From assembly GCA_030428205.1 (NCBI GenBank), contig JAUIBK010000016.1, positions 11,454-75,453 on the forward strand: a DNA stretch of 64,000 nt. The letters run 5' to 3'. The notes beneath the pieces are model-generated. The model searched no databases and was not told the origin of the DNA. It saw only the letters and a list, made by a program, of their open reading frames with translations. This DNA is from a bacterium (GTDB taxonomy: Bacteria; Bdellovibrionota_C; UBA2361; RFPC01). The position numbers were made by a program, and so were the translations under genes. Positions 13,018-54,995 of this stretch are shown here, piece by piece. Within the stretch, counting starts at the first letter, position 1. Each line of letters opens with the position of its first letter.

Positions 13018-13267
13018 ATTCGTGTCCTACAAGTCCCTGTTGGCAGGCTACAGAACTCCCAGCAGCTAATCAAAAATATCTCTCTGGAGAATGAGGAGAG
13101 CAAAGCTAAGCGTAGGAGATTTTATAGCTTGAGTAGTTTCAATGGCTTCTGAGAGTGCATCGATGAGCTCTAGGCTATGATTTCATATGGAGTATCTCTC
13201 GAGTATAAAATTTCAAGAAAGCTCGAATTTACAGGAATCTAACTGTTCATCTTGAGTATATACCCCG

Positions 13268-13488
13268 TGAGATCAGGTCTGTCGTGCTCTCTGAATGTTT
13301 GTGGCGCGTATGGTGGTGTGAAAACTGGTCGCTTTCACGTGTTTTTCTGCACGGTGTATATTTGTCTTCTCCAGGGAAGTACGCTGCTAACGCAGCATAC
13401 TTCCCGTGCGGCGTCCCCGAGGACGCCTTGAAAAGCGCATGGCGTTTTTTATACTCAAATCAGCTTTGTCTCCGACAAACCTGATCTC
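13268..13488 (+). repeat. Structured repeat element, copy 1. It is a candidate sRNA, cis-leader or MITE-like element, and its second copy is at 51213-51411.
   Basis: About 80% identity to 51213-51411. It has the terminal inverted repeat caggtctgtcg...cgacaaacctg and internal helices carrying compensatory changes. Its 3' hairpin carries a T-tract. Confidence 0.6.
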
Positions 13489-13589
13489 TTTGAGTTTATT
13501 TGACTAACATCTTCAAAATTTTGATACTTCGTTATCACCAAATGGACGGGGGATTGAGATATATTCTTCCATATCTTTAGGAGCTGCAC

Positions 13590-38145: not shown

Positions 38146-38181
38146 ATTTTTGTGGGATCTTGCTAGCAGTAATGGGGGAGT

Positions 38182-38343
38182 GAGGCGGAAGCGGATACCA
38201 AGAATAAGACCAAAACGAAGATATAGGTCAAGGCGGAGGCTGAGAAAAAGATAAAGAGCAAGGAGATCCTATTTCTCAGCCTCTATCTCAGTCTTCGTCT
38301 AGATCTTGGTTTTGGTCTTATTCTTGGCCTTGGTCTCCGCCTC
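38182..38343. repeat. Long imperfect palindrome of 6-bp tandem units, copy A. The same family is at 52864-53082.
   Basis: Arm GGCGGA AGCGGA TACCAA GAATAA GACCAA... pairs with TCTTGG TTTTGG TCTTAT TCTTGG CCTTGG TCTCCG, with a perfect 18-bp core. Confidence 0.6.
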
Positions 38344-38365
38344 TAAAAAACAAGCAAAAGTTCTA

Positions 38366-51114: not shown

Positions 51115-51212
51115 TTAGTCTTCGTGGCATATTCCCCGAGATCGACAATGCGGAGCTCTTGCAGCATCGAGGGATGGAAGTATCCAAGGCCACCAATGGG
51201 GATATACCCCGT

Positions 51213-51411
51213 AACCTCAGGTTTGTCGTGCTCTCGGAGTATGGTGCAGCGTATCGTGGTGTGAAAGCTTGTCGCTTTCACGCGTATTTCCCCACGGGGT
51301 ATATTTGTCCTCCCCAGGCCCATAAATGGGCCGTGCGGCCTCCCCGAGGAGGCCTCGAAAATGCTTCGCATTTTATACTCAAGCAGCTTTGTCTGCGACA
51401 AACCTGGGTTT
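51213..51411 (+). repeat. Structured repeat element, copy 2, the same family as 13268-13488
   Basis: caggtttgtcg...cgacaaacctg perfect 11-bp terminal inverted repeat. Internal helices are conserved with compensatory changes. Confidence 0.6.
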
Positions 51412-51493
51412 GAGCATATACTTGATCAAATTTTTGATGTTTTGATGCTTGCTTGCTATCCTAGCCTCTTCATTTGCGTAACCGAGAGGTATT

Positions 51494-52831
51494 ATGAGTG
51501 AAAGAGCTGTGCTTGACGGCAATGAGAAACCCTCACCTTTATGCTCGAGTGAGCTTGGGGGCTGTGCGATGAGCCAAGAGCATCGATCTCTCGGAAAGCA
51601 AGTCCGCTCTGATTTCCCGTTCTTTGGTGGGGATAGAGACCAAGAGTCATCAAGAATAGCGTTTCTTGATTCGGCGGCGAGTGCTCTTAAGCCACAAGTT
51701 GTAGTGGATCGCATGTCTCATTACTTGCTCCATGAGCATGCAAATATCCATCGAGGTGCATACAAGCTTAGTGCTGATGCTACGGCAGCATACGATCTCG
51801 CTAAACTCCAAGTTGCTCAATTTCTCTCAGCCCCATCGGCTTCTTCTATTATTTTCACACGAGGGACTACAGAGGGAATCAACCTGCTGGCTCATAGCTT
51901 TGGAGAGAGGCTTGAGAAGGGTGATAGAGTCTTGCTCACTACGCTAGAGCATCACAGCAATATTGTGCCTTGGCAGCTTCTTGAAATGAGAAGGGGAGTA
52001 GGCGTGTCGTACGCTGATATTCGAGATGACGCCGCTCTTGATCTCGCGGATCTCTTTGCAAAGCTTCGCCAAGAGAAACCAAAATTACTTTCGATTACCG
52101 CCGTTTCAAATGCGTTTGGGACTATTATTCCACTAGAGAAGATTATTCCAGTTGCACGAGAGGTCGGTGCGCTTGTTCATGTAGATGCTGCTCAAGGAAT
52201 TGTGCACTTTCCGCTTGATGTTCAAAGTCTCGATATTGATTTTCTCACCTTCTCAGGTCACAAGATCTACGGCCCAACGGGAATTGGTGTCTTGTATGGA
52301 AAGCCGGAGCTTCTGGAAGCGATGCCTCCATACCAAGGCGGAGGTGACATGATCCATGAGGTCACGCTAGACGGTTCAACCTGGGCTGAATCACCTCGTA
52401 AATTCGAAGCAGGTACGCCTGCTATTGCTGAAGCTATTGGACTCGGTGAGGCCTTAGCCTATGTCACCGCACTTGGACGACAAGAGCTTCTTGACTATGA
52501 GTCACAATTGTTTGAAGAAGCTTTTGAACTTCTGTCGCGTGAGCCTGGGGTTACTCTTTATGGCCCTGCCACGAGCATTCAAAACGAGAGAAGCAAAGTA
52601 CAGACGTCAATCTTACCTTTTACCGTAGAAGGTGTGCATCCACATGATATTTCAACTATAGCGGACAGTTTCGGTGTTCAGATTCGTGCTGGCCACCACT
52701 GTGCTATGCCGGCGTTACGGAGACTAGGAATCCAGTCGACGGGAAGAGCGAGTATTGGTGCGTATACTATCTTAGAAGACTTCGAACTTCTGTGTGAAGC
52801 TATTCGGCGGGCGAGGAAGACTTTTCAGTAG
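51494..52831 (+). CDS. sufS: Cysteine desulfurase, SufS/CsdA-type class V aminotransferase
   Basis: RSDFPFF, FLDSAAS..KP, SGHKIYGPTGIGVLYG (PLP lysine) and a C-terminal catalytic Cys region. The true start may be the internal Met at 51569. Confidence 0.8.
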   Translation: MSERAVLDGNEKPSPLCSSELGGCAMSQEHRSLGKQVRSDFPFFGGDRDQESSRIAFLDSAASALKPQVVVDRMSHYLLHEHANIHRGAYKLSADATAAYDLAKLQVAQFLSAPSASSIIFTRGTTEGINLLAHSFGERLEKGDRVLLTTLEHHSNIVPWQLLEMRRGVGVSYADIRDDAALDLADLFAKLRQEKPKLLSITAVSNAFGTIIPLEKIIPVAREVGALVHVDAAQGIVHFPLDVQSLDIDFLTFSGHKIYGPTGIGVLYGKPELLEAMPPYQGGGDMIHEVTLDGSTWAESPRKFEAGTPAIAEAIGLGEALAYVTALGRQELLDYESQLFEEAFELLSREPGVTLYGPATSIQNERSKVQTSILPFTVEGVHPHDISTIADSFGVQIRAGHHCAMPALRRLGIQSTGRASIGAYTILEDFELLCEAIRRARKTFQ

Positions 52832-52863
52832 ATCGTGAGCTCCCTAAAGTTTTTCACTGTCTA

Positions 52864-53082
52864 GGTCTTAGCCTTAGTCTTAGTCTTAGTCTATAATCTT
52901 GGTCTTGGCCTGATTCTTAGCGTTGGCCTCCGCCTATAAAAACTCCCACTTTCACCTCAGCATGCACGCGTACGGGAACGTCTACGTTAACGTTTCATTT
53001 TAAATGCGAGGATCAGGCTGATGCCAAGAATAGGACCAAGACCAAGATGTAGACTAAGGCTAAGACTAAGGCTAAGGCTGAG
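52864..53082. repeat. Long palindrome of 6-bp tandem units, copy B. The arms are separated by an 88-bp spacer.
   Basis: Left arm CTTAGC CTTAGT CTTAGT...TCTTGG TCTTGG. The right arm is its reverse complement (CCAAGA...CTAAGG CTAAGG). The spacer contains acgttaacgt, gcatgc and acgcgt palindromes. Confidence 0.6.
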
Positions 53083-53254
53083 GGGGGTAGGGGGTTATCT
53101 TTTGGGCGGGGGAGGGAACCTAAAGCTCCCAAGATACCCCGGTAAAAAATACCGGGATATCTTAGTTGCATCAGGAACAGGACAGGCAACCGTGCATCGC
53201 ACCTATGCATGGCACCAAACGTTCTGCAATTATTGGGGGTGAAAGGACTGTTGT

Positions 53255-54098: not shown

Positions 54099-54905
54099 AT
54101 GGAGCTAGCCCGTGATTTACATGCAGACATATTGCCGAAGAAGGACCTAACCCGCATGGCATGTACTCACCTTGACTGTCATACATTTCGTGGTGCAAAC
54201 GCGCTGCTTGATACGTCCTCGTTTGTGTCTTTCAATCCCCATTGCTCACCAGGTAATCTGGTCATCGCTGGTGCTCGCGCCGTGAAACAGAGTATTGGTA
54301 GTCAGGTTGCTTGTAAGCTCTCGCTTGAACATTTTGTAGAAGGCATCCTCGACTATTTCTCCGGTAATTTTAGTGATGAAGATTTTGTTGAGGCTGAGCC
54401 AAGCCTTCGCGCTCTCGAAGCTGCGTTTAAACGTGCAAACAAGAGCGTATACTCTTTTGGCCACAGCCTTGCTGCTGGTGGGAGAATGGCTGCTGCCTTT
54501 ATCGGATTAGTTCTCGAAGAGGAAACAATTGCTTCTGGAAGGGTGGGAAACGGCTCAGCATATCTCTACCGTGCAGGTGAGCTTTTTCCTTTTTTTGATA
54601 GCGCTGATGAGGCTACCCAGGAACATCAGGAGGGTTATCTCGGAACGCAATCGCTTGTATCTGTCGAGCTTGCAAGTGTCGCTATTGAGCCAGGGGATGT
54701 GCTCTACGTTTTCTCGCAAGAGCTAAGTGAGAGCGAAGAGGCCGAACTTATATCCCTCTCTCAAGATATGGATTTTAATAGTCCGGGAAATCCTATCTCT
54801 GAAATTTGTCGTTTCCTCTTTGATTCACCCGATGATGTCGCCTTTGCCACGTTGACACGGGTAGGGCCGGAAACGATCTATCTCGATAATGTTGTTGGCG
54901 GATAA
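54099..54905 (+). CDS. PP2C-like Ser/Thr phosphatase fold protein, possibly degenerate
   Basis: SGRVGNGSAYLYRAGEL resembles the PP2C ANVGDSRAYLLRDGEL motif but lacks the metal-binding Asp residues. Confidence 0.4.
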   Translation: MELARDLHADILPKKDLTRMACTHLDCHTFRGANALLDTSSFVSFNPHCSPGNLVIAGARAVKQSIGSQVACKLSLEHFVEGILDYFSGNFSDEDFVEAEPSLRALEAAFKRANKSVYSFGHSLAAGGRMAAAFIGLVLEEETIASGRVGNGSAYLYRAGELFPFFDSADEATQEHQEGYLGTQSLVSVELASVAIEPGDVLYVFSQELSESEEAELISLSQDMDFNSPGNPISEICRFLFDSPDDVAFATLTRVGPETIYLDNVVGG

Positions 54906-54933: not shown

Positions 54934-54995
54934 TACCACTTTGATAGAGTTTTTGATCCTGTGAAAACAGGATCAAAAACTCTATCAAAGTGGTA
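54934..54995. repeat. Perfect palindrome with 28-bp arms and a 6-nt loop
   Basis: taccactttgatagagtttttgatcctg-tgaaaa-caggatcaaaaactctatcaaagtggta. No flanking T-tract. Confidence 0.7.

Follow-up and report, generated by a model that had tools for sequence, protein, structure and literature searches.

Contig JAUIBK010000016.1, 76,995 bp of a metagenome-assembled genome, comes from an uncultivated lineage related to the Bdellovibrionota. A 64,000-nt stretch of it, here called the window, carries the same non-coding intergenic element twice, in the same orientation and 38 kb apart. The element forms a multi-hairpin fold closed by a long-range helix, and the fold has been conserved while the sequence of its stems has changed. 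As to what the element is, our first choice, held at somewhat less than an even chance, sees in it an intergenic repeat that is structured, dispersed, and once mobile, of the kind to which ERIC, BOX, Correia, or mobile promoters belong; it would be kept for its fold, probably transcribed, and perhaps a weak promoter donor. Unless stated otherwise, coordinates below refer to the window.

Conservation of the Fold

The evidence for the fold is the way in which the two copies differ. Over the helices B plus extension, C, D, E, and F (Table 1), nine pairs have changed on both sides and still pair: three in the extension, four in D, and one each in E and F. On the plus strand, pairing is lost in just two cases. 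When the same 43 substitutions were scattered randomly in 100,000 neutral simulations, the maximum was five compensated pairs, and no simulation had as few broken pairs as observed. The compensated-pair counts are somewhat inflated by the manual fitting of D, F, and the extension to their helices; in the unfitted MAFFT alignment, four both-sides changes remain. Measured against column-shuffled alignments, the alifold energy is better than expected on both strands (plus, z = −7.9; minus, z = −11.5). We take base pairing within a single strand as established for B:B′ with its extension and for D, E, and F. An initial sequence-only reading of this DNA had argued for a selected secondary structure rather than chance. 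The compensatory changes bear this out, and a selected fold is very likely.

Several of the helices proposed in that reading stand in amended form. The inverted repeat CAGGTYTGTCG, B with B′, is present in both copies, but its 11-nt arms are subterminal rather than terminal as had been claimed. The flanking extension pairs as proposed in copy 1 (GAGAT/ATCTC), but in copy 2 AACC(T)/GGTT gives 4 bp and a bulged T, not 5 bp. A GTGAAA/TTTCAC helix, within hairpin C, does occur in both copies, but with an A.C mismatch in copy 1. A GCACGG/CCGTGC helix also exists, but it has only 5 bp in copy 2 and competes with the much longer A:A′ pairing described below, which that reading had missed. The reading was right that hairpin D is wholly different in sequence between the copies and that hairpin E carries a G:C to C:G swap. 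Hairpin F is a stem with one pair changed on both sides, as proposed, but its T-run lies almost wholly inside the stem. Thus, F lacks the free T-run of a terminator, and a terminator scan calls neither copy. Finally, ATATACCCC, which had been offered as a −10 box, has no conserved −35 partner; it is arm A of an inverted repeat instead.

Segments with Competing Partners

Another long-range pairing, A:A′, is an 11–12 nt inverted repeat between ATATACCCCGT and ACGG(T/G)GTATAT (13351–13361 and 51294–51304), which lies ~80 nt downstream. A:A′ crosses B:B′, and therefore the two helixes imply a pseudoknot or alternative states. Other segments also have a choice of partners. B′ can pair with distant B or with the adjacent B″ (CAGCTTTGTC), M- (TATACTCAA) has pairing partners on either side, and CACGG within A′ can turn instead to the CCGTG that follows hairpin D on its 3′ side. 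H2 (Table 1), also a long-range helix, is intact on the minus strand only; its plus-strand version in copy 1 has three A.C mismatches. Constrained folding places the state with A:A′ plus the 3′ hairpin within 2–9 kcal/mol of the B:B′-closed state, in both copies and on both strands.

The segments that have several partners are also those that have changed least. Identity between the copies is 95% in the multi-partner segments, 74% in linkers and loops, and 47% in single-partner stems, where multi-partner segments differ from linkers with p = 0.001 and linkers from simple stems with p = 0.002. Frozen multi-partner segments beside compensating hairpins are what competing pairings would be expected to produce.

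Extent, Borders, and Coding Potential

The two copies are identical at 83% of columns in the MAFFT alignment. In the structure-aware alignment, identity is 175 of 218 columns (80%), with an additional 24 gap columns. The same-orientation pair at about 80% identity that had been reported from the sequence is thus confirmed. The lengths given for it, 211 and 189 nt, match the B-to-B′ spans, but the coordinates quoted with them span 221 and 199 nt.

The whole element is longer. Its left border is sharp, at ATATACCCCGT (13258 and 51202), and to its left the flanks show no similarity beyond that of shuffled sequence (p ~1); the bases next to the left edge are TTGAGT in one copy and ATGGGG in the other. 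On the right, homology persists for ~45 nt beyond B′ (p ~0.0015), into an AT-rich tail that ends with TTTTGATRCTT. Therefore, the element measures ~274 bp in copy 1 and ~249 bp in copy 2. The core has a GC content of 50–54% and the tail one of 26–28%, in a window of 46.6%.

Each copy fills most of a divergent intergenic region, that is, with a minus-strand gene upstream and a plus-strand gene downstream. The upstream neighbors encode proteins of 1061 and 353 aa that have no Pfam match. Downstream lie a gene for a collagen/beta-helix protein (copy 1) and one for a SufS-type cysteine desulfurase (copy 2), with start codons ~58 nt and ~43 nt, respectively, from the end of the element. The downstream genes had been described as unrelated, which is correct, and the same is true of all four neighbor genes, on both sides of both copies.

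The reading frames of the two copies differ, with indels of 1 nt and 16 nt, and in-frame substitutions are nearly all non-synonymous. In the sole frame that is open in both copies, 8 of 19 aligned codons differ, all non-synonymously, before the frames diverge. Given the sharp left border and the unconserved frames, the element is non-coding.

Table 1. Features of the two copies of the element, in window coordinates.
Feature	Copy 1	Copy 2	Sequence and remarks
Whole element	13258–13531 (~274 bp)	51202–51450 (~249 bp)	Left edge sharp, right edge fading into the AT-rich tail
Segment A	13258–13268	51202–51212	ATATACCCCGT; same in both copies, complementary to A′
Closing helix, 5′ arm	13269–13284	51213–51228	Variable extension GAGAT (copy 1) or AACCT (copy 2), then conserved B, CAGGTYTGTCG
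B with B′	13274–13284 with 13473–13483	51218–51228 with 51396–51406	B is CAGGTYTGTCG
H2 segment	13285–13296	51229–51240	TGCTCTCTGAAT; on the minus strand, second long-range helix (H2) with the M-/B″ region
Hairpin C	13318–13338	51261–51281	GTGAAARC-5 nt-GCTTTCAC; nearly invariant
Segment A′	13350–13361	51293–51304	CACGGKGTATAT; pairs with A, crossing B:B′
Hairpin D	13374–13405 (14 bp)	51317–51332 (6 bp)	Unrelated sequence in the two copies
Hairpin E	13410–13427	51337–51354	GGCSTCC-CCGA-GGASGCC; G:C to C:G swap
Hairpin F	13431–13449	51358–51374	A/T-clamped short stem, one pair changed on both sides
3′ block	13450–13488	51375–51410	M- TATACTCAA, B″ CAGCTTTGTC, B′ CGACAAACCTG, variable extension
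AT-rich tail	13489–13531	51411–51450	Plus strand; putative weak promoter-like hexamers facing the downstream gene

A Probable Insertion Upstream of sufS

L016, the closest contig from a distant syntenic relative, keeps the gene order around copy 2: a divergent 342-aa gene (E = 2e-13), sufS (59% identity), and a DUF5610 gene (55% identity). The spacer upstream of sufS is 134 nt long in L016 and 379 nt long in the window, the latter being the sum of 130 nt and the element with its 249 nt. Searches with blastn and nhmmer found no element upstream of sufS in L016 or in two further contigs, L017 and L018. Relative to L016, the window thus carries an insertion; either the element was inserted next to sufS or the relative has lost it, and it is not a conserved sufS leader. 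The nearest homologue of the window's SufS has 59% identity, and the nearest named matches are from Bdellovibrionales and "Deltaproteobacteria" metagenome-assembled genomes. For copy 1, a search for an orthologue of the collagen-like protein, and hence for an empty site, gave collagen-repeat matches only.

Some additional features of the sufS locus were seen. The gene (51494–52831) is monocistronic, with no sufBCD or sufE nearby, and the same arrangement, including the DUF5610 neighbor, is found in L016. The empty spacer of L016 contains, at 1421–1437, TTGAGTACTTTGCTCAA, which resembles the element motif TTGAGTATATAC / TATACTCAA; the two halves of this motif, when joined, make a perfect 16-bp palindrome, TTGAGTATATACTCAA. 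TTGAGTACTTTGCTCAA, noticed post hoc, may be a preferred target or a protein site.

The AT-Rich Tail

In the tail, both copies have promoter-like hexamers facing the downstream gene: TTGACT-17-GATACT in copy 1 (13500–13528) and TTGATC-16-GATGCT in copy 2 (51422–51449). The hexamers are homologous between the copies and lie 43–58 nt before the downstream start codons. Consensus scans of both strands found no conserved promoter–terminator pair.

The minus strand of the tail carries ATCAA-N4-TTG in both copies (13517–13529 and ~51428–51440). The copy 1 version, TATCAAAATTTTG, fully matches the IHF core consensus, WATCAANNNNTTR, a match that comes easily by chance in AT-rich DNA. IHF sites do occur in Correia elements.

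A Proposed Once-Mobile Intergenic Repeat

Our preferred proposal is as follows. The two loci would be diverged copies of one non-coding, non-autonomous dispersed repeat that inserted into two unrelated divergent promoter regions. The element would act as a folded single strand, most likely a transcript, in which a long-range helix of 15–16 bp (B:B′ plus the extension) closes the local hairpins C, D, E, and F. The simple hairpins would be free to drift while pairing holds. The dual-partner segments A, A′, B, B′, B″, and M- would stay frozen, giving two competing conformations or a pseudoknot. The effect of each copy would be local: the flanking genes would gain a stable RNA structure as a neighbor and perhaps, from the AT-rich tail, a weak outward promoter, and their expression may be affected.

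Known families provide a frame for this proposal. Prokaryotic repeats resembling MITEs (miniature transposable elements with inverted repeats) have stable stem-loop transcripts, σ70-like promoters, and RNase sites, and some yield small RNAs (sRNAs) or sites for RNase III or RNase E (PMC10969869). MITEs are shorter than 500 bp and AT-rich, with terminal inverted repeats of ~4–30 bp and flanking direct repeats that may fade with age (PMC10969869). The present element, at 274 and 249 bp, is short enough, lacks coding capacity, is intergenic, and has a stable predicted stem-loop. The Correia/NEMIS, ERIC, BOX, and RUP elements and the QMITEs of Coxiella are likewise dispersed, non-coding, intergenic, and shorter than 500 bp. 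In these, as in the element, inverted repeats close a very stable predicted stem-loop, and a σ70-like promoter may point outward beside a gene. The element differs from these families in that its repeats are subterminal, there is no target-site duplication common to both copies, and the core is GC-richer than the genome. It also differs in being known from only two copies, at 80% identity, with no known parent insertion sequence (IS). Moreover, its internal local hairpins covary, a trait by which those families are not defined.

A second point of comparison is the putative mobile promoters (PMPs) of Matus-Garcia et al. 2012, defined as sequences of at least 50 nt and at least 80% identity located upstream of coding sequences that are not homologous, with the upstream coding sequences non-homologous too; families of two members are the commonest class (PMC3488235). 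The element falls within this operational definition, and its tail carries promoter-like hexamers. PMPs are, however, an operational class without a mechanism, whereas the element is mostly a structured module upstream of its promoter-like part.

A number of observations weigh against a mobile repeat. The inverted repeats stop short of the edges, by 16 nt on the left and ~45 nt on the right; conserved sequence extends beyond the 11-nt repeats (16 nt with the extension) for 11–16 nt to the left and ~45 nt to the right. A systematic border scan found no target-site duplication of at least 4 bp at homologous borders in both copies, and TTGAGT occurs on both sides of copy 1 only. The core is GC-richer than the window (50–54% and 46.6%), and AT-richness is confined to the 40-nt tail. 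None of the ~38 open reading frames (ORFs) in the window encodes a transposase, integrase, reverse transcriptase, or TnpB; the window is ordinary chromosome, with genes for LigA, GltX, PNPase, TyrRS, and aconitase. Only two copies are known, at 80% identity, and that copies so old have kept their structure speaks for a functional RNA gene no less than for a mobile repeat. In the consensus promoter scan, only the copy 1 site passes the threshold.

The plain form of the MITE-like mobile element suggested by the sequence-only reading is weakened, as terminal repeats, a target-site duplication common to both copies, and AT-richness are missing. The target-site check which that reading had recommended found no duplication common to both copies. 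Its either-or of an sRNA or a transcribed MITE-like element corresponds to our two leading readings.

The window holds a second, unrelated two-copy repeat family, at 52860–53085 and 38176–38350. Its members are long imperfect palindromes with arms of ~60–90 nt, are built from degenerate GTCTTA / GTCTTG / GCCTTA hexamers, and end with …GGYCTCCGCCTMTAAAAAAC; over 77 nt, the two loci share ~80% identity. Their locations are the convergent spacer that follows sufS and a site flanked by two minus-strand genes. With a second two-copy hairpin family in the same 64 kb, dispersed structured repeats are a feature of this genome.

Strand and the Possibility of Small-RNA Genes

The sequence-only reading had assumed the plus strand. 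The minus strand in fact folds better and more consistently. For copy 1, the minimum free energy is −97.0 kcal/mol on the minus strand (z = −9.1 against shuffled sequences) and −88.5 kcal/mol on the plus strand (z = −4.7); for copy 2, the values are −91.6 kcal/mol (z = −6.8) and −91.2 kcal/mol (z = −5.6). The consensus fold has −80.9 kcal/mol and a structure conservation index of 0.86 on the minus strand, and −64.3 kcal/mol and 0.72 on the plus strand. In addition, copy 1 has imperfect pairs in B, C, and D that read as A.C on the plus strand but as G.U on the minus strand; hairpin F alone shows the opposite. The imbalance is slight, at 3 to 1 for the core helices and ~7 to 1 once H2, a helix chosen by the folding program, is counted. 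Because the G.U counts are small and H2 was so picked, the modeled folds support a lean toward the minus strand and nothing firmer.

These results bear on the next most probable explanation, which we hold tentatively: that the copies are paralogous stand-alone sRNA genes, most likely on the minus strand, encoding an RNA of ~215–230 nt whose ends are paired by B′:B. The AT-rich tail would then be the promoter region and the sharp edge at segment A the 3′ end, and the RNA would work in trans or else be a stable protein-binding RNA. The better minus-strand fold agrees with such genes, as do the G.U pairs, including three in H2, that replace A.C on that strand. The layout is also gene-like, conserved but fuzzy on its upstream side and sharply bounded at its downstream end, and compensatory evolution at 80% identity implies long-term selection. 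Paralogous structured sRNAs with paired ends, such as the 6S RNA paralogues, are ~200 nt long, have a long terminal helix, occur as two diverged paralogues per genome, and keep their fold by compensation. The element is similar in length, in its long closing helix, and in having two diverged copies with compensatory changes. Unlike 6S RNA, however, it misses the Rfam 6S models, its interior is a multi-hairpin junction rather than a rod with a central bubble, and it has no identified promoter or terminator. Specifically, no σ70-like promoter was found on the minus strand of the tail and no terminator at the minus-strand 3′ end, both of which count against sRNA genes, as does the small size of the G.U asymmetry just discussed. 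No homologue was present in any collection searched, which limits covariation to two sequences. Finally, paralogous genes do not by themselves account for the precise landing in a 130-nt divergent spacer, which still needs a mobilizing mechanism.

A related and more ambitious reading, which we regard as doubtful, is that the two copies represent the first members of a new structured non-coding RNA class, confined to this uncultivated lineage. Such an RNA would be ~220 nt long, probably from the minus strand, with the closing helix and the crossing A:A′ pairing forming a long-range pseudoknot or a two-state switch that has a dedicated function and is not a by-product of a mobile repeat.

Less Probable Explanations

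Selection on the folded strand could in principle operate on DNA rather than RNA. Elements of the IS200/IS605 type and other HUH-transposase elements have no terminal inverted repeats and make no target duplication; their subterminal hairpins are recognized as single-stranded DNA. A palindrome-associated derivative of such an element, acting at the single-stranded-DNA level, would account for the lack of a target-site duplication common to both copies, the subterminal palindromes, and the sharp left border. G.T-type mismatches are found on both strands (3 and 1), and DNA hairpins tolerate them equally on either strand. We nevertheless judge this origin improbable. The left-edge bases differ (TTGAGT and ATGGGG), and the outermost local hairpins, C and B″:B′, are dissimilar, whereas in that family (IS608 and ISDra2) the left-end and right-end hairpins are alike. 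There is no tnpA or tnpB in the window, and the right border is fuzzy. The specific candidate of a palindromic element derived from IS200/IS605 (PATE), which calls for one and the same short target 5′ of the left end and for subterminal hairpins that are similar on left and right, was dropped on the same two findings, the different left flanks and the unlike hairpins.

Equally improbable is that the element is an old duplication without function, the hairpins of which were kept or rebuilt by mutation bias, i.e., by template switching in quasi-palindromes. Changes do cluster in hairpins (47% identity in simple stems, 74% in linkers), hairpin D was replaced wholesale rather than stepwise, and the G.T-type mismatches are spread over both strands. 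But the extension helix covaries at 3 pairs across ~200 nt, beyond the reach of template switching within a hairpin. Nor does mutation bias account for multi-partner segments at 95% identity beside linkers at 74%, or for a core that retains 80% identity while the flanks have lost all similarity.

Last, a plus-strand cis-regulatory leader, riboswitch-like or an attenuator, for the collagen-like and sufS genes had been suggested in the sequence-only reading and now looks unlikely, the least probable of the explanations given here. Both copies do face a downstream monocistronic gene at a similar distance, and the mutually exclusive pairings A:A′, B:B′, and B″:B′, close in energy, resemble the logic of an attenuator. 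The downstream genes, however, are functionally unrelated, and the element is missing upstream of sufS in the syntenic relative. The putative terminator F sits inside the closing helix and has no free U-tract, and the start codons lie ~80–100 nt beyond the fold, with the promoter-like hexamers in between. Rfam gives no match, and the plus strand is the poorer folder.

Search for Relatives and Known Families

Two copies are all that was found, in agreement with the pair originally reported. Searches of the 64-kb window with blastn (word size 7) and nhmmer (--max) turned up no further copy, complete or fragmentary, nor did they find anything new in 18 fetched loci. A scan of the GTDB species representatives with AGCTTTGTCTNCGACAAACCT gave 0 matches, and a scan of GTDB genomes with GGTGTGAAANNNNGTCGCTTTCA gave 2, both chance. 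In the JGI metagenomes, with both inverted repeats required, 12 loci were retrieved, all of them chance; four pattern scans of IMG/VR gave 0 matches. The chance hits agree with the element in nothing but the search pattern. Plasmids and phages, searched with blastn in distant mode, yielded no match. A set of 5.8 billion proteins was searched with the concatenated six-frame translations of both copies, aiming at spurious ORFs called over further copies, and nothing was found at E ≤ 10.

The sequence-only reading had recognized no standard housekeeping RNA, and Rfam 15 agrees: there were 0 matches at gathering thresholds across the whole window, so that a known RNA family is rejected. The best sub-threshold hits differ between the copies and are STnc430 (19.9 bits, threshold 47) and whalefall-1 (18.2 bits, threshold 37). 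The whalefall-1 hit covers hairpins D and E of copy 2 (51307–51357, minus strand, E = 0.03); since it is absent from copy 1, we regard it as noise from two GC-rich hairpins.

Other candidates were also set aside. A tRNA or tmRNA was rejected after a scan. A coding gene or type I toxin does not fit, as there is no conserved small hydrophobic ORF and the frames diverge. A retron msr-msd was rejected because the window has no RVT domain, the neighbors being the collagen/beta-helix protein, SufS, and the two proteins without a Pfam match. Similarly, an IS110 bridge RNA or a TnpB-associated RNA would need a cognate protein, and no such protein is nearby. On inspection, hairpin C does not fit a CRP-like operator, for its half-sites are spaced by 12 rather than 6.

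The only other public assembly of the copy 1 locus is a Logan contig, L013 (4.9 kb, ERR3428546), which carries the collagen-like gene. L013 starts inside copy 1, at a point equal to window position 13459, between hairpin F and B″. This start may reflect a break in the assembly graph at a repeat, in which case more copies in that sample are hinted at, or it may be due to low coverage.

Two other repeats in the window are recorded here. At 54934–54995, directly after the gene at 54099–54905, lies an inverted repeat whose 29-bp match is perfect and whose loop has 4 nt (TACCACTTTGATAGAGTTTTTGATCCTGT … ACAGGATCAAAAACTCTATCAAAGTGGTA). A 46-nt direct repeat with 78% identity occupies positions 2–47 and 940–985.

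Implications

We see the element as a good candidate for follow-up and not as a discovery in itself. If the fold is functional, the bacterial group concerned, which has been sampled very poorly, would have in this element a lineage-specific structured RNA or a mobile module with structure. The element would further serve as a clean illustration of a pattern in which hairpins with a single partner drift while segments with two partners are frozen, a pattern that can flag conformational switches from just two sequences.

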